Below, in pieces: positions 24,535 to 36,286 of a stretch of DNA of 64,000 nucleotides. Position numbers and translations under genes: made by a program. The stretch covers positions 21,043 to 85,042 of the forward strand of contig CAZPEP010000039.1 of NCBI GenBank assembly GCA_964585685.1, read 5' to 3'. Within the stretch, counting starts at the first letter, position 1, and each line of letters starts with the position of its first letter. The stretch is from an uncultured Eubacteriales bacterium. GTDB taxonomy: Bacteria > Acidobacteriota > Aminicenantia > Aminicenantales > Saccharicenantaceae. The notes under the pieces were generated by a model that did no database searches, was not told the DNA's origin, and saw only the letters and a program-made list of their open reading frames with translations.

Positions 24535-25641
24535 ATGAACATCATTGCGCCGCTCGCTATTCTGGTAACGCTATCCGGCGGCCCGCGCCCCGAGACCAAG
24601 ATCCCCTGTTACGCGTGGCTTGGCGGACCCGGTGAGGCTACGGACGCCCAGCTCGAGGCCAAATTCGCCGATCTCAAGAAGAAAGGGATCGACGGCCTGC
24701 TCTATTCGGCCGGTCACGACCCCGAAACCTACCGGCGGGTCGGAAAGCTCGTCAAAGCGGCGGGCATGAAGTTCGAGGCCTGGATCCCGACGCTCGTCCA
24801 AGGGAGGAACCCCAAACTGAAGCACGCGTGGTACGCCGTGAACGGGCTCTGCCAGTCGGCGTTCGACAAGCCCGCCTACGTCGACCATTACAAGTTTCTC
24901 TGCCCGAACCGCGAAGGGGTCTTCCTCTTCCTGGCCGACCTGTACGGCCGGATCGCGGAGGTTCCCGAGGTCGACGGCATCCACTTGGACTTCATCCGCT
25001 TTCCGGACGTCATCCTCGCCCGCGGACTGTGGAAGAAATACAGTCTCGTGATGGACCGGGAGGCCCCGCAATTCGACTACTGCTATTGTGACAAGTGCGT
25101 CGCCGACTTCAAGGCGAAGACGGACATCGACATCAGGGCCGTCAAGGACCCTTCGTCGATCGAGGCCTGGAAGCAATTCCGCTATGACCTCATCACGAAC
25201 CTTGTAAGCCGCCTGGCGAAGGAGGTCCGCTCGAAGAACAAGCGCATCACGGCCGCCGTGTTCCCCGGCCCGAATTCCGTCGCCCGAAAGATCGTCCGGC
25301 AGGAATGGGACAAATGGGACCTGGACGCCTTCTTCCCGATGAACTACAACGACTTCTATCTCGAGGGGACGAAGTGGATCGGCGCGATGTGCCAAGAGGG
25401 CGTGACTGCGCTTGGCAACAGGAAGCCGCTCTATAGCGGCCTGTTCATCTGCCCCGACCCGGCCGCCAAAGCCTCCGAGCCCGACCCCGAGAACCACGGT
25501 CTTGTGCCGGAAGAGCTCGAGGCCGCCGTCCGGGAGTCCATGGAGAACGGCGCGGCGGGGATCTGCCTGTTCACCCCCGACCGGATGACCGAAGCCGGCT
25601 GGGCCGTCTTCGAAAAGGCGATCCGAAACCGGGTCCGATAA
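24535..25641 (+). CDS. Glycoside hydrolase-like family 10 (GHL10/DUF187) exported protein
   Basis: FLCPN, VDGIHLDFIRFP, RQEWDKW, FPMNY motifs; short hydrophobic N-terminus. Confidence 0.75.
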   Translation: MNIIAPLAILVTLSGGPRPETKIPCYAWLGGPGEATDAQLEAKFADLKKKGIDGLLYSAGHDPETYRRVGKLVKAAGMKFEAWIPTLVQGRNPKLKHAWYAVNGLCQSAFDKPAYVDHYKFLCPNREGVFLFLADLYGRIAEVPEVDGIHLDFIRFPDVILARGLWKKYSLVMDREAPQFDYCYCDKCVADFKAKTDIDIRAVKDPSSIEAWKQFRYDLITNLVSRLAKEVRSKNKRITAAVFPGPNSVARKIVRQEWDKWDLDAFFPMNYNDFYLEGTKWIGAMCQEGVTALGNRKPLYSGLFICPDPAAKASEPDPENHGLVPEELEAAVRESMENGAAGICLFTPDRMTEAGWAVFEKAIRNRVR

Positions 25642-25760
25642 ACCCCGTTCGTGAACACCCGGCTCGATGTCCCGGGCCCGAAGAGCGGGCGGCAGTCTAT
25701 CGGGACGACGACCTGTCACAAGGGAAGGAAGGGACGTAGGCCGTCTGGGGCTCCAAGGGG

Positions 25761-25793
25761 GCGCGAGACTAGCGGGGCGTGCGCGAGACCAGC
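25761..25793. repeat. Short direct repeat between convergent genes
   Basis: GCGCGAGAC(T/C)AGC at 25761-25773 and 25781-25793. Confidence 0.5.
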
Positions 25794-25794
25794 C

Positions 25795-26130
25795 CTAGTC
25801 TGCAGATGCGGCGGGCGAGTCCTTCTTTGCCGTTTCCGCCTTGGCCTCAGATTTCGATCCTGTTTTTTCCGGGGCCGTTTTGGCCGGCTTGTCCGCCGGC
25901 TTGTCGGCCGGCGCCTGATCCTGGGCCTTTTCTTCCTTGGTCGGGGTGTTCTTATGGGCGTAATCGGTGATGTAGAAGCCGGAGCCCTTGAACTGGATGG
26001 CTGGCGAAGAGATGAGCTTCACCAGCGGGCCGCCGCACTTCTGGCATTTCTGGAGCGGCTTGTCCCTGAGCTTCTGCAGGGCTTCAGTCCGGGCGCCGCA
26101 GGTCTTGCACTTGTATTCATGAATAGGCAC
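25795..26130 (-). CDS. FmdB family zinc-ribbon protein
   Basis: PIHEYKCKTCG...CQKCGG...FKGSGFYITDY; Ala/Lys/Pro tail; GTG start. Confidence 0.9.
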   Translation of the reverse strand: MPIHEYKCKTCGARTEALQKLRDKPLQKCQKCGGPLVKLISSPAIQFKGSGFYITDYAHKNTPTKEEKAQDQAPADKPADKPAKTAPEKTGSKSEAKAETAKKDSPAASAD

Positions 26131-26399
26131 GGTCGTTATCTTCCTTAAGCCATAGTAAGCCACATATTGTAACATAACTTAACGCAAAATACGCGGGATG
26201 GCGCATGGACTCACGTAACATGTTATCGAAGGAAAGGCTGTTGAATCATATCCCCTGGCGAGGGATCGCAGGCGATGACGAACGGCTTTGGTTTTTCGCT
26301 ATTTATCGCCCCAGGAAATTGACAAGGGGAATTATTAATTCGGCAGGATAAGACCCGTGATATACTCATATCTATAACTTTCGGCGGGTACGGTTACAA

Positions 26400-27257
26400 A
26401 TGACCAGTCGAACGGTGACCGCACTGATCAATGAAAAACGGCAGAGCTTTCCTCAGGGGACGACTTTGGCACAGTTGGCAAAGGATTTTCTTCCCGCCGC
26501 GGACGTCCTTGTTGTCAACGGCTTCCCGGAAGATCAGGCGTATGTGGTCAAGGACAGAGACAGGATCGTGTTGATTCAAAAAGGCCGAACCCCCTCGGAT
26601 AAAGAACTGGAGACGCTTCTGGTTGCCCGTCACTCTCCGGGCATTTATGAACGGGTCCGGAAGGCCGCCGTAGGCATTGCCGGCCTGGGGGGGCTGGGCT
26701 CGGCCGTGGCCATCAGCCTGGCCCGGACGGGGATCGGCCGGCTCATTCTTGCCGATTATGATGTGGTCGAACCCAGCAACTTGAACCGCCAGCAGTATCT
26801 TATCAAGCACCTGGGGATGGCCAAGACCCAAGCGCTCCAGGAAATGCTGGCCGAAATCAATCCTTGGGTCGAAGTTACGACCGTCAACCTCGAGTTGGAT
26901 CCACAGAATATCCCGGGAGTTTTCCGCTCTGCGGATATCATCGTCGAGTGCTTTGATGATGCCATGGCCAAGTCCATGCTCTTGGGATCGGTTCGCGAAG
27001 CCCTCCCTCAGGCTTATCTTATTCTCGCTTCGGGATTAGCCGGGTACGGGGATAGTAATTCCATTCGGACCTGGAGAATGGGCGAGCGGACCTTTGTAGT
27101 CGGGGACCTTAAGAGCGCGGCAGGGCCTGGCCATGGCCTCATGGCTCCCCGGGTCGGCATCGCGGCGCATCACCAAGCCAATTTGGTCATCAGCTTGCTC
27201 GTGTCTCCGGAGAGGACACGGGACGAGACGGAAGATCTCTTGGGAAAGCCGATCTAA
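26400..27257 (+). CDS. thiF: ThiF-family sulfur-carrier adenylyltransferase with an N-terminal ThiS-like domain
   Basis: GIAGLGGLGS, DYDVVEPSNLNRQQY, MAPRVGIAAHHQAN; N-terminal beta-grasp segment. Confidence 0.85.
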   Translation: MTSRTVTALINEKRQSFPQGTTLAQLAKDFLPAADVLVVNGFPEDQAYVVKDRDRIVLIQKGRTPSDKELETLLVARHSPGIYERVRKAAVGIAGLGGLGSAVAISLARTGIGRLILADYDVVEPSNLNRQQYLIKHLGMAKTQALQEMLAEINPWVEVTTVNLELDPQNIPGVFRSADIIVECFDDAMAKSMLLGSVREALPQAYLILASGLAGYGDSNSIRTWRMGERTFVVGDLKSAAGPGHGLMAPRVGIAAHHQANLVISLLVSPERTRDETEDLLGKPI

Positions 27258-27312
27258 TCGTTGTAGATTTAATGCCCTTGATTTTCAGGACTGAATCTGC
27301 AGCCTTCGGAGT

Positions 27313-27591
27313 CTAGCCGCCCCCTGAAATAGGGATGAATGAGATTCTATCTCCTTCGGCCAGTCTTCGGCCGCTTTTAATGTAGGTCTCGAACAGCTCT
27401 TTATTGATGAAAATCCGGACGCTTTTTTCGAGGATTCCCGACCAAGGGATCTGAAATCGTTTGATGATCATATCGATGGCCTCTCGAGGATCTGCCGGCA
27501 ACTGCATTTCAAGCTCTCTTTGACCCGAATACCGTTGCATGACCGTGATAAAGCGGACGCCGATCAAGATGGATTGTTGTATCTGTACCAA
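27313..27591 (-). CDS. MoaD/ThiS-family ubiquitin-like sulfur carrier
   Basis: 92 aa ending RLAEGDRISFIPISGGG; TTG start with GGAG RBS. Confidence 0.85.
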   Translation of the reverse strand: MVQIQQSILIGVRFITVMQRYSGQRELEMQLPADPREAIDMIIKRFQIPWSGILEKSVRIFINKELFETYIKSGRRLAEGDRISFIPISGGG

Positions 27592-27595
27592 GAAT

Positions 27596-27856
27596 TCACT
27601 CCGACCTCTTCAGGTCCCTGATGATCCCCGCATCATGCCACTCCTTGATGGTCCCCCACTGGAAATTCCGGTCGGTGAACCCGACTACGTGCAACCCCGT
27701 TTCTTTTTCACACTTTAAAAAGGCCTGGATGGAATCATAGTTCAAGCCATCCATGGATTCGATCTCCAGCCAGCGATCCCGCTCGACCTCCAAAAATACG
27801 TGGTCTCTCGCTAGATCGTATAGTGATTTTGCGATCCTTATTCTATGAGCTTTCAT
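27596..27856 (-). CDS. Hypothetical protein (86 aa)
   Basis: Open frame ending 4 nt before the MoaD-like start; plausible RBS; no recognisable motif. Confidence 0.55.
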   Translation of the reverse strand: MKAHRIRIAKSLYDLARDHVFLEVERDRWLEIESMDGLNYDSIQAFLKCEKETGLHVVGFTDRNFQWGTIKEWHDAGIIRDLKRSE

Positions 27857-27946
27857 CGGACCCCCTGCCCGTGATTTCTCCGGGGACGGAACGACGACTT
27901 TCGGCCATGGCCAAATCGTTCGCAGTCCCTAATCCGGCTTTCCGGA

Positions 27947-29224
27947 TTACCCGGTCTTGAGCGAGGCCGTTGCCTTGAGCATCAGGTCGATTTCCTCGGG
28001 TGTATTGTAATGCCCAGCTGAGAGCCGAACCGCGTCCGGCCATCCCAGCGCATCTAACGAGACGGTGGAATAGGCATCCCTGATTCTGGCGGCGAGCCGT
28101 ATCCCATGCTCCTTGTTGTATCGGCAGATGGCTGTTGAGGAGTCCATCCCCGCCAAACGAAACAAGAAGATGCAGAGACGGTCGCCGATTCCTTCCGGCA
28201 TGCCGCAGACCTCGACATGATCCTGATGGAGGAGGCCGGGGTGCGCTTCTGTCCCTTTCATGGCGCGATGGAGCAGCGCGTTCATGTGCTTGTGGATCGC
28301 TTCCTTGGCGGCAACGATCTGGGCTCGTCGGTCCAAGGCTTCTGTGAAATGGCTTCCGAGCCAGCAGAGATAGTCGACCGTGGTCGACCAGGCGGCATAC
28401 ATCATGTGGGCGGGGGAGCCCAGGACCCAATTTGTATCCGGCTTCCCGTGCAGCCTCTCATGGGGCAGCTTGGCCAGCCTGTCTGAAATATGAGCAAACC
28501 CGATCCCCTTGACGCAATAAGCCTTGTAAGGGCCAAACGCATAGGCATCGGCGCCGTATTCCTCCACCTCGATCGGGCCATGCGGCGCGTATTGGACGGC
28601 GTCCACGAGAACGTAGAGATCCGGCTTTATCGTTCTAGCCTCGTCGATGATGGTCCTGACATCATTGATCGCGCCCGTCTGGTTCGATCCGTGCTGGAAG
28701 GCCAAGAGGCATGTGCTTTTATCGATTTTTTCGAGGATGTTGTTGATCGGGACCGAACTCGTTTCTCTGGAGAGTTCGGCCACGCGCCATTGCTTGCCGT
28801 ATTTCTCGGCGTAGTATCGGGTGGCCCCTAGAACGGCCGGGTGTTCGAGTTCCGTAGTCACGACGTTATCGCCCGGGACGGAAGAAACCACGGCTTCAAT
28901 GGCCCGAAACATTGTCTGGGTTGCGCTGTGGGAAGGCACGACGGAACCCGACTTCGCCCCTAAGAAGAGCTTGACATCCGAGGTCCCTTTTTCCACGGCT
29001 TCGACCACGGCTTCAGAAGCGGGATTGAACCGATAAAGCTCATCAGGGAGAGCCGCTTCCCTGGCGATGGTATCGACAACGGACTTAAGCCTGAGAGAAC
29101 CGCCAGAGGCCTCGAAATACACCCGCTTTCCCGAGTAAGGATCCCAATCGGGATACATGAATCGGTTCCGGATCTCAGCCAGAAGCCCGGGGGAAAACAA
29201 GCCATTGTCGAGATTCGTCCTCAT
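27947..29224 (-). CDS. Class V PLP enzyme, cysteine desulfurase-like fold without the catalytic Cys loop
   Basis: LEHPA, DAVQYAPH, FGPYKAY (PLP Lys), VRLSAGHYNT; AGGAGG RBS before ATG 29224. Confidence 0.8.
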   Translation of the reverse strand: MRTNLDNGLFSPGLLAEIRNRFMYPDWDPYSGKRVYFEASGGSLRLKSVVDTIAREAALPDELYRFNPASEAVVEAVEKGTSDVKLFLGAKSGSVVPSHSATQTMFRAIEAVVSSVPGDNVVTTELEHPAVLGATRYYAEKYGKQWRVAELSRETSSVPINNILEKIDKSTCLLAFQHGSNQTGAINDVRTIIDEARTIKPDLYVLVDAVQYAPHGPIEVEEYGADAYAFGPYKAYCVKGIGFAHISDRLAKLPHERLHGKPDTNWVLGSPAHMMYAAWSTTVDYLCWLGSHFTEALDRRAQIVAAKEAIHKHMNALLHRAMKGTEAHPGLLHQDHVEVCGMPEGIGDRLCIFLFRLAGMDSSTAICRYNKEHGIRLAARIRDAYSTVSLDALGWPDAVRLSAGHYNTPEEIDLMLKATASLKTG

Positions 29225-29276
29225 AACGTTCCTCCTTGAGACGTCGCTCATGTCTTCTGAATCGGCTCAAGTATTC

Positions 29277-29304
29277 AGTTTAGTTATTTTGAGGGCCAAG
29301 TCAA
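29277..29304 (-). promoter_or_regulatory. Putative promoter of the PLP enzyme/MoaD-like operon
   Basis: Minus strand TTGACT-N16-TAAACT. Confidence 0.45.
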
Positions 29305-29463
29305 GAAAAAGCGCGAACAAAACTTCTAATCTGTAGCTTAAGCTCGCCATCGGATGAATTATCCTTTCACTGCTTAGTCCAAAATCATGATATATTACTT
29401 TACAAGTGACCTTTTGTATTGATAAAATGCGAGTCCTTAATTGATGAAAGGAGATACCTGCTC

Positions 29464-30579
29464 ATGGAAAATAGGCTAAACGACATCGAAGAGGTCCTCC
29501 TTATGGGGCCGGGCCCCTCGTGCGTCCATGAATCTGTCTATGCGGCGCTTGGCCGGAAAACTTTGGGCCACATGGATCCCTGCTTCATCGAGATCATGGA
29601 TGAAGTCAAAAAGTTGCTGTTGGTCGTTATGCAGACACAGAACAGGATGACCATTCCCATATCGGGGACCGGGTCGGCCGGGATGGAAACATGCTTCGTC
29701 AATCTCATCGAGAAGGACGATCCCGTGCTCATCTTGATCAACGGCGTCTTCGGTAAGCGCATGCAGGACGTCGCCGGCCGATTGGGTGCCCGGGTCGATG
29801 CGCTGGAGTTCGAATGGGGAACGCCTGTCGTCCCGGACCGTGTCGAAGAGAAATTGAAGAGCGGCCGTTATAGAATTCTTGCCGTTGTGCATGCCGAAAC
29901 TTCGACGGGCGTGAAAAATCCAGTCGAGGAAATAGGCGGGATGCTGCGGGGGAAAGACACTCTTTATCTTGTTGATGCGGTCACCAGCCTCGGAGGGATG
30001 AAGGTGGCTACAGACGAATGGGGCGTGGATGCCCTTTATAGCGGGTCACAAAAATGCCTTTCCTGCCCACCGGGGTTGTCGCCCGTTTCCTTTTCCAACA
30101 GAGCTCTGGAGGCCATCTTGGGCAGAAAGACGAAAGTCCCGAACTGGTATCTCGATATCAGTCTGTTGACCCAATACTGGGGCGGAAAATCGCGCGTCTA
30201 TCACCACACGGCTCCCATCAACATGATCTATGCTCTTTATCAAGCCCTCCTACTCATCGTGGAGGAAGGGTTCGAGAACGTCTGCCGGCGGCATCAGGAT
30301 TGTCACAGGCGGTTGGTTCAGGGACTTGAGGCCTTGGGACTGAAGATGCTGGTCGCCCCGGATTATCGGCTTCCGATGCTGAACTCGCTGTATATTCCCG
30401 AGGGCGCCGATGATGCCGGAGTGCGCCGTCGGCTCAGAAATGAATACAAGATCGAGATCGGGGCCGGGTTGGGACCTTTGGCCGGAAAGATCTGGCGCAT
30501 CGGACTGATGGGTCATACGGCCAGGCCGGAGAACGTCGATAGGGTATTGCAGGCGCTGAAAGAGATTTTGGGCCGCTAG
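29464..30579 (+). CDS. Alanine-glyoxylate / serine-pyruvate aminotransferase (class V)
   Basis: LLMGPGPS, SGTGSAGME, HAETSTGV, SGSQKCLSCPPG, IWRIGLMG. Confidence 0.92.
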   Translation: MENRLNDIEEVLLMGPGPSCVHESVYAALGRKTLGHMDPCFIEIMDEVKKLLLVVMQTQNRMTIPISGTGSAGMETCFVNLIEKDDPVLILINGVFGKRMQDVAGRLGARVDALEFEWGTPVVPDRVEEKLKSGRYRILAVVHAETSTGVKNPVEEIGGMLRGKDTLYLVDAVTSLGGMKVATDEWGVDALYSGSQKCLSCPPGLSPVSFSNRALEAILGRKTKVPNWYLDISLLTQYWGGKSRVYHHTAPINMIYALYQALLLIVEEGFENVCRRHQDCHRRLVQGLEALGLKMLVAPDYRLPMLNSLYIPEGADDAGVRRRLRNEYKIEIGAGLGPLAGKIWRIGLMGHTARPENVDRVLQALKEILGR

Positions 30580-30771
30580 TTCGTTAGGGGAGATCCGGAT
30601 GTTTCCGGGGTCTGAACGGCGGTCCGGAGACGCTGAGGTGAGGCGAGGATTGATTCTCCCGCAGCTGTTCGGATATATCCCTCGATGGTTCCCAATGGGG
30701 GGACGGCTAAAGAGACAGAGGCTGCGGTTGCTTCAAGCTCTCCATATGATTTCACAAAAAGGAGGACAACG

Positions 30772-32658
30772 ATGGCTCCTGGCTATTTAGGCAAGATCCT
30801 CAGAATCAACCTCAACGATCTGTCCTACGCGATCGAGGGGAAAAGCGAATTCTTTTACAGAACATTCATGGGCGGAAGCGCGATGGCGTCCTACTTCCTT
30901 TTGACGGAACTCAAGAAAGGAATCGATCCGCTCGGACCGGAGAATGTCCTGGTCCTGACAACCTCGGTCCTGACAGGGGCGCCTTTGCCGGGGGCGAACC
31001 GGATCACAATGGCGGCGAAGTCTCCCCTCAGCGAAGGCTTCGGAGAAGCTGAGGCCGGAGGCTTTTTTTCGGTGGAGTTGAAGAAAGCCGGATTTGATGC
31101 CGTCGTTATCCGGGGGAAAGCGCCGAGGCCCGTCTATCTCTGGATCGCCGACGGGAAGGTAGCGTTCAAGGATGCAAGCCATCTCTGGGGGCACGATTCC
31201 GGCTTTGCCCAGGACACAATTCGACAGGAATTGGGCGATGCCAAGATCCAGACACTGACCATCGGCCAGGGAGCCGAGAACCTGGTTCGATATGCCTGCG
31301 TGGTCCACGATCTCCGTCATACGTGCGGACGGTCGGGGATGGGAGCCGTCATGGGCTCTAAGAATATCAAAGCCATCGCTGTCCGGGGGAAGCTTGACCT
31401 GGAGCTGCATAATAAAGAAAAGATCAAGGAATTGAGCTCGTTCTTTGCCCGCAACAGGAAAGGTCACCCCGTCTGCGATATCCTTACGTACGGAGGGACT
31501 TGGGGATGGGATATGGAGGACATGGATACCGACGGTGTCCTGCCAACCCAGAACTTTCATGGAGGGGCTTTTGACAAGATAGAGGATGTGACATTCGAAA
31601 AGCTGAAGGAAACCGTCTTCAGCGGTCAATACACGTGTTATGCTTGTCCCGTCCGCTGCAAGCCGATCTGCCAAGGCGGGAAATACGAGATCGATTCCGC
31701 CTACGGGGGTCCTCAATACGAAACGGCCGGCGCTTTCGGGCCCAATCTGCTGATCCATGATGTCGAGGTGATCGCCAAAGCCCACGAACTCTGCAATAGA
31801 TACACGATCGACACGATCGATACGGGCATGACGATCTCATTCGCCATGGAATGCTTCGAGCAGGGCCTGATCACGAAAGAGGATACGGGTGGAATCGATT
31901 TGCGTTTTGGCAACGGCGAAGCGCTCCTGCAGATGATCGAGAAGATCGCCTTCCGGCAGGGCTTCGGAGCGCTCCTGGCTGAAGGAAGCTATAGAGCAGC
32001 CAAGGCCATAGGCAAGGGCGCCCAGCGATTTGCCATGACGGTCAAAAAGCAAGCCTTCGCCATGCATGAGCCGAGGGGGAAGAACAACATCGGATTTGCC
32101 TTTGCTCTTTCGCCGACGGGCGCGGACCATATCGAGGCGGCTCATGACATGAATTTCCAGGAGGGGAAATGGGCCGTCGCGGATCTTTTCCCGATAGGAA
32201 TTTTGAAGGGCATCCCGGCCCGGGATCTCAGCCCTTACAAGGTCAGGTGGTTCGTCCTGAATCAGCATATCTACAGCGCTCTGAACACACTCTGCCTGTG
32301 CTTTTTCACCGTGGGTCCGGCGCGGCTCTTCCGTCTGAATCACATGGTCGAGATGGTGAACGCGGCCACAGGATGGGAAACGAGCCTGTTCGAACTAATG
32401 ATGTTGGGGGAGAGAACCACGACCTTGGCGCGCCTCTTCAACGCTCGGGAGGGTTTCGATCGAAAAGAAGACGAACTCCCGGAGCGGCTTTTCGAACCCC
32501 TGGAGACAGGCCCGCTGACTGGCGTAAAGTTGGAAAAGAAGGACTTCACCAGGGCCCTGGATCTGTATTATGAGATGATGGGCTGGGATGTCGCCACGGG
32601 AGTGCCGCGAGAAGCGAAACTCTACCATCTCAACATTGCCGACCTATCGCAATTCTGA
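30772..32658 (+). CDS. aor: Aldehyde:ferredoxin oxidoreductase family (tungstopterin) enzyme
   Basis: GKILRINL, GRSGMGAVMGSKNIKAI, CYACPVRC, GPQYET, DELPERLF, YYEMMGWD; GGAGG RBS. Confidence 0.92.
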   Translation: MAPGYLGKILRINLNDLSYAIEGKSEFFYRTFMGGSAMASYFLLTELKKGIDPLGPENVLVLTTSVLTGAPLPGANRITMAAKSPLSEGFGEAEAGGFFSVELKKAGFDAVVIRGKAPRPVYLWIADGKVAFKDASHLWGHDSGFAQDTIRQELGDAKIQTLTIGQGAENLVRYACVVHDLRHTCGRSGMGAVMGSKNIKAIAVRGKLDLELHNKEKIKELSSFFARNRKGHPVCDILTYGGTWGWDMEDMDTDGVLPTQNFHGGAFDKIEDVTFEKLKETVFSGQYTCYACPVRCKPICQGGKYEIDSAYGGPQYETAGAFGPNLLIHDVEVIAKAHELCNRYTIDTIDTGMTISFAMECFEQGLITKEDTGGIDLRFGNGEALLQMIEKIAFRQGFGALLAEGSYRAAKAIGKGAQRFAMTVKKQAFAMHEPRGKNNIGFAFALSPTGADHIEAAHDMNFQEGKWAVADLFPIGILKGIPARDLSPYKVRWFVLNQHIYSALNTLCLCFFTVGPARLFRLNHMVEMVNAATGWETSLFELMMLGERTTTLARLFNAREGFDRKEDELPERLFEPLETGPLTGVKLEKKDFTRALDLYYEMMGWDVATGVPREAKLYHLNIADLSQF

Positions 32659-32675
32659 CTGACGAGGAGTCGAGC

Positions 32676-34019
32676 ATGGGTTTGAATAATATCTTCCCGG
32701 CGTTCTTGGGCACTTTTTTTCTGCTCGGGGGAACCGTTGTCCAAGCCCAGGAGGCCAAGGCACGTTTTGAGATGCTGAACCTGATCAGGAAGGAGAAATT
32801 CGACAAGATCCTGCCGGGCGCGATGCGGGATCATCATGTCGACATGTGGATTCATGTGATCCGGAGAGGGGACCCCGACGCCTTCGCCCTGGATTTTGGA
32901 GCGACGATGGGCTCTATCATCTTTGCCGACAGGGGGGGAGACCGCATCGAGAGGGCTATATTCGGCAACAGTTTTGCCGACATTGCCGACGACTCCGTTT
33001 ATGACATCATCGGCGAGGAGACCGATATCACTCAGCATATCGCCGCGCGCGATCCTCAAAGGATCGCGATCAACATGTCGGAATCCCTCACCCACGCGGA
33101 TGGGCTTTCGCATACGGGGTATAAGAAATTGGCGGGTTTGCTGGGCGAGAAATACACCAATAGACTGATCTCTTCCGAAGAGGTTGTCACCGATTTCCGG
33201 GTGAGACGGGTCCAGACGGAAATCATTACCTTTGCCAAGGCCTGCGAGATCCAGAGACTCATCATGGAGGCGGCTTTGGGAAGCATAAAGCCCGGGGTCA
33301 CGACCCGGGAGGAACTCGGGTCGTGGGCGAATGATCAGCTGCTGTCCCAGAGAATCGAACCGTCATATTTCGGGCTGGATCTGCCCGGCATTCAGCATTC
33401 CGAAACCGCTGACCCTTCCGAAACCAGCCGACCGGGATATGCTTTCCAGAGGGGAGACCTGATATCGTGGGATTGGGGGATCCATTACCTCAATTTCGGA
33501 ACCGACTACAAACGAAAAGCGTACATCCTTCGGGAGGGAGAAACGACGCTTCCCAAGAGCATCCAGAAGGCTTGGGATAGAGGGCTGAAGGCCCGGGAAG
33601 TGATCTGTCGGACATTCACCGCGGGACGGACCGCGGGGGAAACGCTGAAGATCGTGGTCGCTGCTTTGGGAAAGGCGGGATTCGCCTATACGCCATTTAT
33701 GGATACCGATCGGGATGCTGAGATCATCCAGTCCCTGAGGGATTCGGATCAATCCGGATTTTCCATCGATTGCCATTGCGTGGGCAATACGGGCAACAGC
33801 GAAATCGCCGAGGGCCCCTCCATGGCGCCGTTCCGTCCCTATCGGGCCCATCTCCTGGTCCAGCCGAACAATCTCATCTCTTTTGAATTCATCGTACACA
33901 CCTGGATCCCTGAATGGGGAAAAAGGCTGGCCATCAACTTCGAGGACAATGCCGTCGTGACGGAACGAGGCGTGGAGGCGCTCTACCCTCGGAACGACAC
34001 GATCATCCTGGTCCGATGA
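32676..34019 (+). CDS. Secreted M24 (Xaa-Pro peptidase fold) metallopeptidase
   Basis: Signal peptide; ligand motifs WDWG...GTDYK, DCHCVG, SFEF, FEDN. Confidence 0.82.
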   Translation: MGLNNIFPAFLGTFFLLGGTVVQAQEAKARFEMLNLIRKEKFDKILPGAMRDHHVDMWIHVIRRGDPDAFALDFGATMGSIIFADRGGDRIERAIFGNSFADIADDSVYDIIGEETDITQHIAARDPQRIAINMSESLTHADGLSHTGYKKLAGLLGEKYTNRLISSEEVVTDFRVRRVQTEIITFAKACEIQRLIMEAALGSIKPGVTTREELGSWANDQLLSQRIEPSYFGLDLPGIQHSETADPSETSRPGYAFQRGDLISWDWGIHYLNFGTDYKRKAYILREGETTLPKSIQKAWDRGLKAREVICRTFTAGRTAGETLKIVVAALGKAGFAYTPFMDTDRDAEIIQSLRDSDQSGFSIDCHCVGNTGNSEIAEGPSMAPFRPYRAHLLVQPNNLISFEFIVHTWIPEWGKRLAINFEDNAVVTERGVEALYPRNDTIILVR

Positions 34020-34101
34020 CGGTATTGCGTGTCCATGCTCTTTTGAGGCCAGGTCCCGGACAGACAAGCGGAACACGAAGAATCTCATCGTCAGAACGAG
34101 A

Positions 34102-34995
34102 ATGGGTTTTTCTTTGATAGAAAAGAAAGATGACACGATAAAAGCGTATGTGAGTTGCCTTCTGCTCTTGACTCTGGGCATTTTGGGGTGCCGATCGAAC
34201 CGCTCTCCGGCTCCGGAATCCCGAAAACTTCAGTTGACCAAAAAGGTCGAGGTCTTTGGCCTGTTTCTCTATGCGACCGATCGTGTGGCCGATGAAAAAT
34301 TGCTCCATGCGGCGCGTGTCCTGGCTGAATACCTGGATAACGATGAAAGCGGGATCCCCGACAACCCGCTGGTCCTAGAGGCGCTGCTTGCCCAAGATGC
34401 TGCCATCCTGATGGGCTGCGATGAGGACGAACTCCGTTCGCTGGACCGGGGGGGGATCCCCCCCGGGGCTACGCAATTCCTCTATGACTATGAGACGCGC
34501 CCGGGTGGGGCGGAACGGGGGGTTTTTGATGCGGCCGTCGAAGAGATCCTCCATCCCATCACCGACGTCGGATACGCGACCGCTTATCCGGATGTTTTCG
34601 GGACCGGCCCCGGCTCGGAAGTGGCCAGGATCATGGACGAGGCGAGGGGAGGCCATTTCGAGAAGGTCCCCGAGAAATATCCGGAAAGCGCTTGGTATAC
34701 CTATTATGATAAGACGTGCCTCTACGAATGCCAGGTCACGGAATATGTCTATTGGGCCTTAACATCGATACTCGGCGCTCAGGATTTCCCTGGACGCCTG
34801 GAGCAGATCCGGCAAGAGTGGAGATACAACACTCCAGAGAAGGTCAGGATGGGCGATCCAAAAGTCTATAATCTCTTAACGGATCCTCAGTACAGGTTCC
34901 CGACGTTCCTGCCGAACGGTGATTACGCCGCGAATTCCTTGACCATCCAGAAGCATGAATCCCTCATTTTGGACACGCCAGCTTCTGATCCTTGA
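34102..34995 (+). CDS. Uncharacterised lipoprotein, zincin-like EExxH domain (paralog 1)
   Basis: Lipobox ILGC; DAAVEEILHPITDVG...TEYVYW; exact start uncertain. Confidence 0.75.
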   Translation: MGFSLIEKKDDTIKAYVSCLLLLTLGILGCRSNRSPAPESRKLQLTKKVEVFGLFLYATDRVADEKLLHAARVLAEYLDNDESGIPDNPLVLEALLAQDAAILMGCDEDELRSLDRGGIPPGATQFLYDYETRPGGAERGVFDAAVEEILHPITDVGYATAYPDVFGTGPGSEVARIMDEARGGHFEKVPEKYPESAWYTYYDKTCLYECQVTEYVYWALTSILGAQDFPGRLEQIRQEWRYNTPEKVRMGDPKVYNLLTDPQYRFPTFLPNGDYAANSLTIQKHESLILDTPASDP

Positions 34996-36286
34996 ACTTG
35001 AGGAATTCGATATCCGCCAACTCGTCCTCTCCGTCACGACCGGGAAAGGTATCCTTGACGATGACTTTGTTGCCTGCTTCCTTTATCTCATATTCCGTGG
35101 AACTGCCTGAAAATTCCGCCGTATCTTTGCCTTCTCCCCCCGCGATCAGGTCATTTCCCTTTCCGCCAATGATCAGGTTGTTGCCGTCATTCCCTGTTAG
35201 CCTGTTATCCTGGTCATTGCCGAGAATGTTCGAATTGTTCTTCCCGGTCAGGATGATGTTGAGAAGGTGTTGGGATTTGTGGGTATATTCTGCATCCTGA
35301 TCAAGAATCGTTGAAAAAGTCCCTTCAAATGACGGATCGATATAGGCATTATAGGTCAAATATCCCGGCCAGAATTTTTCAACAAGACCGTCTAGAGCCG
35401 GGTCGCCCGCTTTCATTTCCGCTCTCGTATGGAAGGGATACTCGTTGCCAAAAGATTTCCCGTCACCCTGAGGATTGTGATCCCACAGGCCGAAATAGAT
35501 ATCGAAACCCGTGATGATGTATTCATGAGATGCCGGCCGCCCGTACAAATATTTCCCGGCTTTAACGGCCGCCTGTTCCGCCTCGACGATTTCCTTTTGG
35601 AATTCAGGCAGAACCTCCTCCAGTCCTTTGGCATGAACAAGATGCATGATCTCCTCATAGGAGGCATCCCGGGTAAAACGATGACCCGGCTTCGCCTTAT
35701 TGTGGAGATATTCATAACTGCCCTCGACGGGAGATTCCGTCGCATAGAGATCCTGGATCCTGAGCTCTGAATCCCTCAATATGGGACGCGTGGCAAAGGA
35801 CTTGATCTCCGTATCCGTATAGATGAGCGTGGCCCTGACGTCCGCCATCCTGTTGGCCAGCGCGGTTTTATCATGACCGTATTGCGTGCCGGGAGCATCG
35901 GTCAGATGGTATCTCAAGATCTCCCTCGCCCTAACAAGCTGCAAGTCACTCACGCCGGACTGGGCAAAAATATGGATGGGCTTGCCGTTGGGGGCCAAGT
36001 GTTTCGTGTATTTCGAGAACAGGCCGCTTAGCGTCTTCCCGAGCTCCTTCGGGAGCGGAACGATCCCGAGAGGGGACGTTGACGTGTCGATCCGGTCGAG
36101 GGCCGCATAATTGATGTCGATCCGTTCAGGCACGTCATATTTGACCTCTGCAACGGCCCTCTCCATTCTCGCCCTTCTGTCATCCTGGGCGGTTCGTTTT
36201 ACACTTGCGGCCGGCTGCCCCGTTCGCGTCCCACACGACAGGATCGAAAAGGCCACGATGATCATTGAGGCCGTCCGTCTCATCAT
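34964..36286 (-). CDS. Lipoprotein, EExxH domain plus C-terminal RTX/hemolysin-type Ca-binding repeats (paralog 2)
   Basis: Lipobox ILSC; DASYEEIMHLVHAKG...HEYII; GNDQDNRLTGNDGNNLIIGGKGNDLIAGGEGKD. Confidence 0.8.
   Translation of the reverse strand: MMRRTASMIIVAFSILSCGTRTGQPAASVKRTAQDDRRARMERAVAEVKYDVPERIDINYAALDRIDTSTSPLGIVPLPKELGKTLSGLFSKYTKHLAPNGKPIHIFAQSGVSDLQLVRAREILRYHLTDAPGTQYGHDKTALANRMADVRATLIYTDTEIKSFATRPILRDSELRIQDLYATESPVEGSYEYLHNKAKPGHRFTRDASYEEIMHLVHAKGLEEVLPEFQKEIVEAEQAAVKAGKYLYGRPASHEYIITGFDIYFGLWDHNPQGDGKSFGNEYPFHTRAEMKAGDPALDGLVEKFWPGYLTYNAYIDPSFEGTFSTILDQDAEYTHKSQHLLNIILTGKNNSNILGNDQDNRLTGNDGNNLIIGGKGNDLIAGGEGKDTAEFSGSSTEYEIKEAGNKVIVKDTFPGRDGEDELADIEFLKFKDQKLACPK

Follow-up and report, generated by a model that had tools for sequence, protein, structure and literature searches.

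Cofactor supply to tungsten-containing aldehyde:ferredoxin oxidoreductases (AORs) is poorly known, and a locus in which such an AOR is accompanied by an adenylating enzyme, a small sulfur-carrier-type protein and two pyridoxal 5'-phosphate (PLP) enzymes raises the question of whether these genes work together and, if they do, which of them serve the cofactor of the AOR and which its substrate. The locus lies at positions 26400-32658 of a 64,000-nucleotide stretch of DNA, here called the window (contig CAZPEP010000039.1, positions 21,043-85,042 of the forward strand; assembly GCA_964585685.1), from an uncultured Eubacteriales bacterium that GTDB places in Acidobacteriota; Aminicenantia; Aminicenantales; Saccharicenantaceae and whose genome, labelled G000, is 95.6% complete. 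The positions and identities of the genes are all as a preliminary description of this DNA had given them (Table 1).

Here, we describe the AOR, an aminotransferase, a SufS-like PLP enzyme, a carrier ending in GGG and an E1 adenylyltransferase as a co-inherited mobile module of uncultured Aminicenantes. That AORs can be associated with an E1 and a MoaD-like carrier is known; what appears to be new is the addition of two strictly linked class-V PLP enzymes, a description of which we did not find in the literature. The module defines an orthogroup of SufS-fold enzymes without the catalytic cysteine, tied to a single AOR subtype and to an aminotransferase of the AGXT type, and as a compact five-gene unit it offers a clonable test case.

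A co-inherited and mobile module

A collection of metagenomic loci seeded from the PLP enzyme returned 80, which were split at 60% identity to the window enzyme into 41 at or above this value and 39 below it. All 41 of the closer loci had some of the window genes nearby; the 39 more distant ones had no aminotransferase, AOR or carrier, and one had a weak match to the E1. Among the loci that extend for at least 3.5 kb on both sides of the PLP gene ('long' loci), the 16 at or above 60% all carry the aminotransferase and the AOR, the former immediately upstream of the latter in every case, and all carry the E1 or the carrier (E1 in 13, next to the PLP gene or the carrier; carrier in 11; both in eight), with the conserved 86-residue protein p86 in six and the M24 peptidase in seven. 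The equivalent figures for the 13 long loci below 60% are a single E1, and hence one locus with E1 or carrier, none with both, and no aminotransferase, AOR, carrier, p86 or M24 gene. As the genomes and contigs compared are mutually related, these counts overstate independence, and the independent signals are three gene orders, two displacements and two transfers into other families. The survey of synteny that the preliminary description had proposed as a check thus comes out in favour of the module: the five genes occur together elsewhere, in at least three arrangements, and loss of synteny, one of the outcomes that it had named as refuting, is not seen. An earlier indication that the trio of PLP enzyme, p86 and carrier was not conserved, which came from synteny seeded with p86 and the carrier, was overturned by the PLP-seeded scan; those seeds had misled because the genomes concerned hold the carrier 24-120 kb from the module.

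In the first arrangement (type A, that of the window), the aminotransferase and AOR genes are read away from a divergent PLP-p86-carrier series, on which the E1 gene converges. Type B keeps the divergent layout of PLP gene and aminotransferase-AOR pair, has the E1 gene convergent with the PLP gene directly, and has the carrier gene either next to the distal end of the AOR gene or at another site. Type C is a single operon in the order aminotransferase, AOR, PLP enzyme, carrier. Further variants are locus L082 (PLP enzyme, carrier, E1, aminotransferase, all in one direction) and genome G597, from another order, with an operon of AOR, PLP enzyme, carrier and an aminotransferase that is 32% identical. 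The E1 is likewise exchanged for a canonical MoeB-type E1 in L082 and L069, the L082 version being 29% identical to that of the window. Retention of the genes through rearrangement, with non-orthologous displacement of the E1 and the aminotransferase, is good evidence for a functional unit. A regulator of the Lrp/AsnC family flanks the module in five loci.

The distribution of the module across genomes is sporadic. In a comparison of 339 genomes of the class (96 of family f6 and 86 others of G000's own family; thresholds of at least 64% identity for the PLP orthogroup and at least 67% for the AOR subtype), the PLP orthogroup was present in 20 besides G000, of which 19 belong to f6 and one to f12, and 18 of these 20 also have the carrier family. 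Within f6, the AOR subtype and the PLP orthogroup occur together in 18 genomes, one without the other in two with fragmented assemblies, and neither in 76. The PLP orthogroup is missing from the 86 remaining genomes of G000's own family, the AORs of G000's relatives share only about 33% identity with that of the window, and the guanine-plus-cytosine (GC) content falls from 0.63-0.67 to 0.53-0.57 exactly at the start of the module, against 0.617 for the genome. Since its family lacks the module, its AOR diverges from those of its relatives and a low-GC island begins there, G000 is judged from composition and gene content to have gained the module horizontally.

The low-GC stretch itself runs for about 45 kb (GC 0.53-0.58; window ~25000-64000, C39 ~46000-94000), begins at the module and is rich in genes for peptidases and transporters. 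Counterparts in genomes of family f6 share 45-60% identity with several of the encoded proteins, and the stretch as a whole was probably acquired as one large island. The window contains no tRNA gene.

A SufS-fold enzyme without the persulfide cysteine

The SufS-like enzyme matches PF00266 with 115 bits and falls below every NCBIfam cut-off, including those of the desulfurase models TIGR01979 (96.7 bits against 475) and TIGR01976 (143.5 bits against 352); the ESM Atlas returned only the designation 'class V PLP enzyme'. Its AlphaFold model (pLDDT 92.6) is matched best by Foldseek to SufS/CsdB, with TM 0.77-0.81 at 19-24% identity. When a profile of 22 clade members is aligned with SufS (PDB 5vpr), the 'RTGHHC' loop lies opposite 'R(I/V)xDAY', and the catalytic Cys corresponds to Tyr394 ('RDAYS'). 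Across 35 close orthologues, which share 162 invariant residues, Asp392, Tyr394 and Ser395 do not vary, and nor do the positions that bind PLP and the alpha-carboxylate, namely His137 (of the EHPA motif), Asp217, Gln220, Lys243, Arg389 and Arg409. No Cys is invariant across the 22-member alignment, and the sole invariant Cys of the 35 close orthologues, C360, is predicted to lie in a beta-strand outside the active-site loop. The statement in the preliminary description that the enzyme keeps EHPA and the PLP lysine and lacks the persulfide Cys is therefore borne out. Because the Cys is replaced by an invariant Tyr, no Cys remains in the active site and the desulfurase hidden Markov models (HMMs) score far below cut-off, the protein is predicted to be an amino-acid-binding PLP enzyme incapable of forming an enzyme persulfide.

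With the type II desulfurases SufS and CsdB (E. coli SufS, PDB 6mrh; 1c0n), the window enzyme has in common a fold at TM 0.8 and the PLP lysine, stacking His, Asp and carboxylate-binding Arg; it differs in being 19-24% identical, in having an invariant Tyr for SufS Cys364 and in the lack of a SufE or SufU partner. Sequence matches also include relatives in which a NifS/SufS-like scaffold does without the catalytic cysteine, namely UstD (PDB 7mkv, a decarboxylative aldol enzyme), FGM3 (PDB 9x4u) and Rv3778c (PDB 3cai), although the relation is weak (E 1e-10 to 1e-18 with a single sequence). A literature search on FGM3 gave nothing useful. More distant paralogues of the window enzyme are found among hydantoinase/oxoprolinase, aconitase-like and dipeptide-binding genes, not among sulfur-relay genes. 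C-DES is a cystine C-S lyase of SufS-like fold that works without a catalytic Cys, and Cys-less members of this fold typically expel a beta or gamma substituent, leaving alanine or pyruvate. We know of no link between C-DES, UstD, FGM3 or Rv3778c and an AOR, a ubiquitin-like (Ubl) carrier or an E1.

These properties bear directly on one alternative, in which the enzyme would be a private sulfur donor, a C-DES-like C-S lyase that takes cysteine or cystine to sulfide or persulfide and so thiocarboxylates the carrier for the tungsten-pterin of the AOR. Its SufS fold, with the residues for PLP and the alpha-carboxylate intact, would suit this role, as would the position of its gene, directly upstream of the carrier and, in L082, upstream of carrier and E1 in one operon, and the presence of the carrier in nearly all genomes with the orthogroup. 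A passage of PMC11323500 also cites the thiocarboxylation of MoaD by sulfide in vitro. Yet the catalytic Cys is gone, two canonical NifS/IscS desulfurases are encoded elsewhere in G000, the enzyme tracks the AOR subtype and not the carrier type, and the equally conserved aminotransferase is left without a role. Furthermore, other clusters of AOR, Ubl carrier and E1, including one on contig C16 of G000, manage without such an enzyme, and the E1-carrier pair stands alone in genus g229. We consider this alternative unlikely, albeit one to be taken seriously.

The E1 and its carrier

The E1 exceeds the equivalog cut-offs of TIGR02354 (thiF_fam2; 262.8 bits against 152.2) and NF006395 (274.4 bits against 159) and matches PF00899 with 113 bits; its first 62 residues form a ThiS-like domain (PF14453, 49.7 bits) that went unmentioned in the preliminary description, and it has neither a rhodanese domain nor CxxC zinc motifs. 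Taken at face value, the equivalog scores would make it an ordinary thiamine ThiF acting on a distant ThiS, with the other genes as unrelated neighbours, and fusions of Ubl domains to ThiF are indeed typical of thiamine operons in some phyla (PMC1779556). The ThiS-like::ThiF fusions of the thiamine operons of Campylobacter and Firmicutes (PMC1779556) have the same two-domain E1 together with a separate, solo GG-ended carrier. The window, in contrast, has no ThiG/ThiH/ThiC/ThiE context, and the partners of its E1 are the AOR and the PLP enzymes. No thiG, thiH or thiS was found among the neighbours of the E1 gene, and a genome-wide search of G000 for ThiG gave only two partial matches of about 22 bits. 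No Rfam family is matched at E<=1 within 25000-35000 and therefore neither a thiamine pyrophosphate (TPP) nor a molybdenum cofactor (Moco) riboswitch is present there, so that the absence of thiamine neighbours and of a TPP riboswitch noted in the preliminary description holds. In addition, the E1 is kept beside the PLP gene or carrier in most long loci, it is convergent with the carrier in other genera too, and a paralogous family-2 E1 is fused to MobB within a Moco cluster. In line with the preliminary description, the E1 of the window is thus not taken for a thiamine enzyme, and we find its assignment to thiamine synthesis scarcely credible.

The carrier matches PF02597 with 28 bits (cut-off 22.5) and ends in ...FIPISGGG, a terminus conserved as FIP(I/L/M)SGGG across about 20 module loci; it lies below the curated MoaD model TIGR01687 (23.4 bits against 49.5). 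Homologues elsewhere adjoin unrelated genes, for example an FGGY kinase or an SSF transporter. In one relative (L028, G008:C15:13298-16558), a GGG-ended MoaD gene sits after a small NTPase_1/DUF2478 P-loop protein and not an AOR.

The dedicated E1 and the free GG(G) end of the carrier would also suit a ubiquitin-like conjugation system of the SAMP or TtuB kind, in which the carrier would be attached to proteins such as the AOR, and archaeal sulfur carriers do form conjugates as well (PMC11323500). The consistent partner is, however, a pterin enzyme, and no E2-like or JAMM/JAB domain was detected in any neighbour scanned; conjugation is accordingly very improbable.

AOR-linked carriers and the missing MoaE

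The AOR is a clear member of the tungsten type, with 238.9 bits to AFOR_N, 393.3 bits to AFOR_C, a match to Pyrococcus furiosus AOR (PDB 1aor) at E 1.4e-107 over residues 33-653 and a CxxCxxxC cluster motif in its translation. The neighbourhood it shares with carrier and E1 has precedents. In 2006, Iyer, Burroughs and Aravind (PMC1779556) described clusters, sporadic in occurrence and seemingly mobile, in which MoaD genes strictly adjoin AOR genes and MoeB is often present as well; they proposed a role in pterin synthesis for the tungsten cofactor (their Table 1, row 3) and also described Ubl domains fused N-terminally to ThiF. The archaeal link to AOR was confirmed by Makarova and Koonin (PMC2948915), and aorD and aorE of Aromatoleum aromaticum are putative maturation factors of the tungsten cofactor (PMC6365974). 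A literature search on AOR in Aminicenantes gave nothing useful.

The window agrees with this published neighbourhood (PMC1779556; PMC6365974) in its tungsten-type AOR, GG-ended carrier and rhodanese-less E1, in the sporadic, mobile-looking spread and in the separate Moco operon elsewhere in the genome. It differs in that its AOR is always accompanied by the AGXT-type aminotransferase and the SufS-fold PLP enzyme, in that its E1 belongs to ThiF family 2 and has a Ubl domain at the N-terminus, and in the lack of a ferredoxin, a pyridine-nucleotide disulfide oxidoreductase and MoaE. To our knowledge, the role of AOR-linked MoaD-like and ThiF-like genes, including the supply of sulfur from the carrier to the tungsten-pterin, has never been tested experimentally.

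Within the order, AOR genes are found in 40 of 41 genomes, mostly at two to five per genome, and every AOR paralogue has its own Ubl gene alongside: a gene for an 87-residue MoaD-type or 71-residue ThiS-type protein adjoins the different paralogues, often with a family-2 ThiF a few kilobases off. In G000, a second cluster of this kind lies on contig C16 (C16:16000-34000, locus L012), where TupA-like, TupB-like, MoeA, MoaA, MoaC, a small MOSC protein and MogA/MoaB are followed by a fusion of MobB with family-2 ThiF, an aldehyde dehydrogenase, a 75-residue carrier ending in SGG and an AOR. This carrier gene (L012:13003-13227, minus strand; G000:C16 ~29002-29226) is directly downstream of the C16 AOR and was missed by both PF02597 and NCBIfam, so that such family searches undercount these carriers and the notion that G000 has only one Ubl carrier is wrong. 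The other AOR-carrier-E1 clusters of the order, that on C16 among them, have no SufS-like enzyme and no aminotransferase. In genus g229 (L158, which is G411:C24, L159 and L160), a convergent pair of Ubl::ThiF and MoaD-like genes lacks the PLP enzyme and ends an operon that also encodes an FMN-bind/4Fe-4S protein, an aldehyde dehydrogenase and a MatE-like membrane protein, with no AOR within 9 kb.

MoaE was not found in the order: searches with PF02391 detected none in G000 or in any of the 41 genomes of the order, 40 of which are at least 90% complete, against 227 of 301 genomes of the phylum (a tally that includes the unpublished genomes G089, G114 and G217 as counts). Its order-wide absence beside so many AORs sharpens a gap in the biosynthesis of the molybdenum and tungsten cofactors. 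The small MOSC protein between MoaC and MogA on C16 has as its best NCBIfam match a MoaC/MOSC fusion model. The SufS-like enzyme was rejected as a substitute for MoaE because it is rare in the class (about 21 of 339 genomes) while AORs are near-universal in the order. Of the two further components for which the preliminary description had suggested a look elsewhere in the genome, moaE was thus not found, and for tupABC the search yielded the TupA-like/TupB-like pair on C16, a search of G000 for WtpA being negative.

A bolder form of the donor proposal takes in the lack of MoaE in the order: AOR-adjacent carriers would feed the pterin independently of MoaE, and the SufS-like enzyme with its Cys-to-Tyr exchange would be a dedicated, persulfide-free mobilizer of sulfur (or selenium) that loads the carrier. 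If true, the dithiolene of the tungsten cofactor would here be made by a new route; we think this rather unlikely.

Proposed cofactor and substrate sides

The reading that we favour, with middling confidence, divides the module in two, with the carrier and E1 maturing the cofactor of this particular AOR and the two PLP enzymes supplying its aldehyde substrate from an amino acid. On the cofactor side, the E1 would adenylate the terminal glycine of the carrier, and a generic donor, be it one of the two NifS/IscS enzymes of the genome or free sulfide, would turn the acyl-adenylate into a thiocarboxylate. The thiocarboxylate would then provide the dithiolene sulfur of the tungsten-pterin of this AOR, the role proposed for AOR-linked MoaD/MoeB pairs elsewhere. 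On the substrate side, the SufS-like enzyme probably carries out the Cys-independent chemistry of its fold, in which an amino acid loses a beta or gamma substituent and ends up as alanine or pyruvate; the aminotransferase may handle the amino-acid product or make the oxo or aldehyde intermediate, and the AOR would oxidize the aldehyde to the acid with reduction of ferredoxin. An aminotransferase that uses alanine and an oxidoreductase for aldehydes would follow naturally on Cys-less SufS-fold chemistry, and the two PLP enzymes with the AOR may together constitute a branch of amino-acid or peptide fermentation.

We prefer this division because the catalytic Cys is gone, NifS/IscS enzymes are present and other AOR-carrier-E1 clusters do without the PLP enzyme. 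The PLP enzyme is, moreover, matched one-to-one with a single AOR subtype and with the aminotransferase, a pattern to be expected if these enzymes set the substrate route. The location of the PLP gene, either in one operon with the aminotransferase and AOR genes or across a divergent promoter region from them, is a hint in the same direction, and the Lrp/AsnC regulator and the genomic contexts of the distant paralogues are likewise counted as hints of a substrate role. Of the functional scheme in the preliminary description, the link of carrier and E1 to a tungsten or molybdenum pterin survives to the extent that the E1-carrier-AOR association matches the published 'tungsten cofactor' neighbourhood (PMC1779556). 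The self-contained sulfur route is not sustained, given the absence of MoaE, the NifS/IscS enzymes elsewhere and the clusters without such a PLP enzyme; nor does anything tie the Cys-less enzyme specifically to sulfur mobilization, the E1-carrier pair also occurring without it.

Several points weigh against the favoured division, beyond the relatedness of the genomes compared. In types A and C the carrier gene directly follows the PLP gene, at a distance of 4-25 nt or with the two overlapping, and this adjacency would equally fit a direct partnership of the two proteins. The remote position of the carrier in several genomes (see above) means that it could serve other targets. Any service of the carriers to the pterin would, moreover, have to proceed without a recognizable MoaE.

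Finally, the co-inheritance of the five genes, in a single operon in some genomes, could also be read as biosynthetic sulfur insertion. As with CysO/CysM, HcyS/MetY or the carrier-dependent steps of some thio-natural product pathways, the carrier thiocarboxylate would serve as nucleophile towards a small molecule; the SufS-like enzyme would form the C-S bond, and the aminotransferase and AOR (acid to aldehyde) would prepare or finish the carbon skeleton. In the known routes to cysteine and homocysteine that depend on such carriers, PLP enzymes act as acceptors. In addition, AORs are able to reduce acids (PMC9295118). The CysO-MoeZ-CysM-Mec system of M. tuberculosis and the HcyS-HcyF-MetY-HcyD system of Wolinella do resemble the window in clustering the genes for a Ubl carrier, an E1 and a PLP enzyme; in the window, however, the PLP enzyme is of another fold class, no JAMM/Mec-type hydrolase was detected among the neighbours scanned, and the AOR is a constant partner. 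AOR-linked Ubl genes without the PLP enzyme are, moreover, the rule in the order, and the setting is one of peptidases and transporters, with no biosynthetic tailoring or export genes. We regard sulfur insertion as distinctly unlikely.

Depending on which side the PLP enzymes prove to serve, the outcome could be a new branch of amino-acid fermentation in the Aminicenantes, an uncultured group abundant in anoxic sediments, or else new sulfur-donor chemistry for pterin cofactors.

Gene layout and neighbouring features

Table 1. Features at 26400-34995 of the window, in order of position
Feature	Coordinates	Strand	Basis
E1: N-terminal ThiS-like ubiquitin-fold domain :: family-2 ThiF adenylyltransferase	26400..27257	+	HMM
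GGG-ended 92-aa beta-grasp sulfur-carrier-type protein (MoaD-like)	27313..27591	-	PF02597
p86, conserved 86-aa protein without known fold; accessory passenger	27596..27856	-	homologue family
SufS-fold class-V PLP enzyme, Tyr394 at SufS catalytic-Cys position	27947..29251	-	PF00266, AlphaFold, profile alignment
Divergent intergenic region, PLP gene versus aminotransferase-AOR operon	29252..29418		promoter-like sites
AGXT / serine-pyruvate-type class-V aminotransferase	29419..30579	+	PDB 1vjo match
Tungsten-type aldehyde:ferredoxin oxidoreductase, P. furiosus AOR type	30685..32658	+	AFOR_N, AFOR_C, PDB 1aor
Divergent M24 metallopeptidase, frequent but inconstant neighbour	32676..34019	+	PF00557 41 bits
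p297 lipoprotein beside M24 gene, outside module	34102..34995	+	Pfam: none; 2/16 long loci

The E1 gene is convergent with the minus-strand trio of PLP enzyme, p86 and carrier, in which the stop of p86 and the start of the carrier are separated by 4 nt; the aminotransferase and AOR genes are divergent from the PLP gene and are followed by those for the M24 peptidase and the lipoprotein. The intergenic region that separates the two directions, a layout retained in types A and B, contains one promoter-like site per strand (29304-29277 on the minus strand and 29399-29428 on the plus strand), the total number of sites being not above chance. The listed TTG start of the aminotransferase (29419) overlaps the plus-strand site, and the true start is probably the ATG at 29464, 15 codons downstream.

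The aminotransferase has PDB 1vjo as its best PDB match (E 3.1e-115) and matches human AGXT at E ~1e-83, against only ~1e-31 for 2-aminoethylphosphonate transaminases; no NCBIfam equivalog cut-off is reached. An identity as PhnW, the 2-aminoethylphosphonate transaminase, was considered and dropped in favour of AGXT, the PhnW models being well below cut-off.

The three-gene unit of PLP enzyme, p86 and carrier set out in the preliminary description is real as a layout, as is the GGG end of the carrier, but p86 is not part of the core, being found in fewer than half of the long loci. It forms a tight family with 35 metagenomic homologues and 29 invariant columns, including ...VGF.D.NFQWGTIK.W..., and a structural search with its model (pLDDT 75.5) gave nothing above Z 3.5. 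The family motif reads ...VGFTDQNFQWGTIKDW..., and the protein belongs to no Pfam family. In 12 GTDB genomes (loci L014-L025), p86 always lies between a TRAP transporter or p297-type lipoprotein gene on its upstream side and the gene for a 345-residue aldo-keto reductase downstream. As a persulfide acceptor in trans, p86 is rejected, its single Cys being Ser in several homologues and the protein being absent from most module loci.

Two further observations were made. Among the relatives, an AOR-family paralogue with one in-frame TGA occurs in two genomes of one genus (G011:C14:27170-28228 and G014:C30:61161-62216), and this could be a selenocysteine codon or an artefact of sequencing or of a pseudogene. 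Just upstream of the E1 gene, at the GC boundary, a gene at 25795-26175 on the minus strand encodes a Zn-ribbon protein (PF09723) with a long tail rich in Lys, Ala, Pro and Glu.

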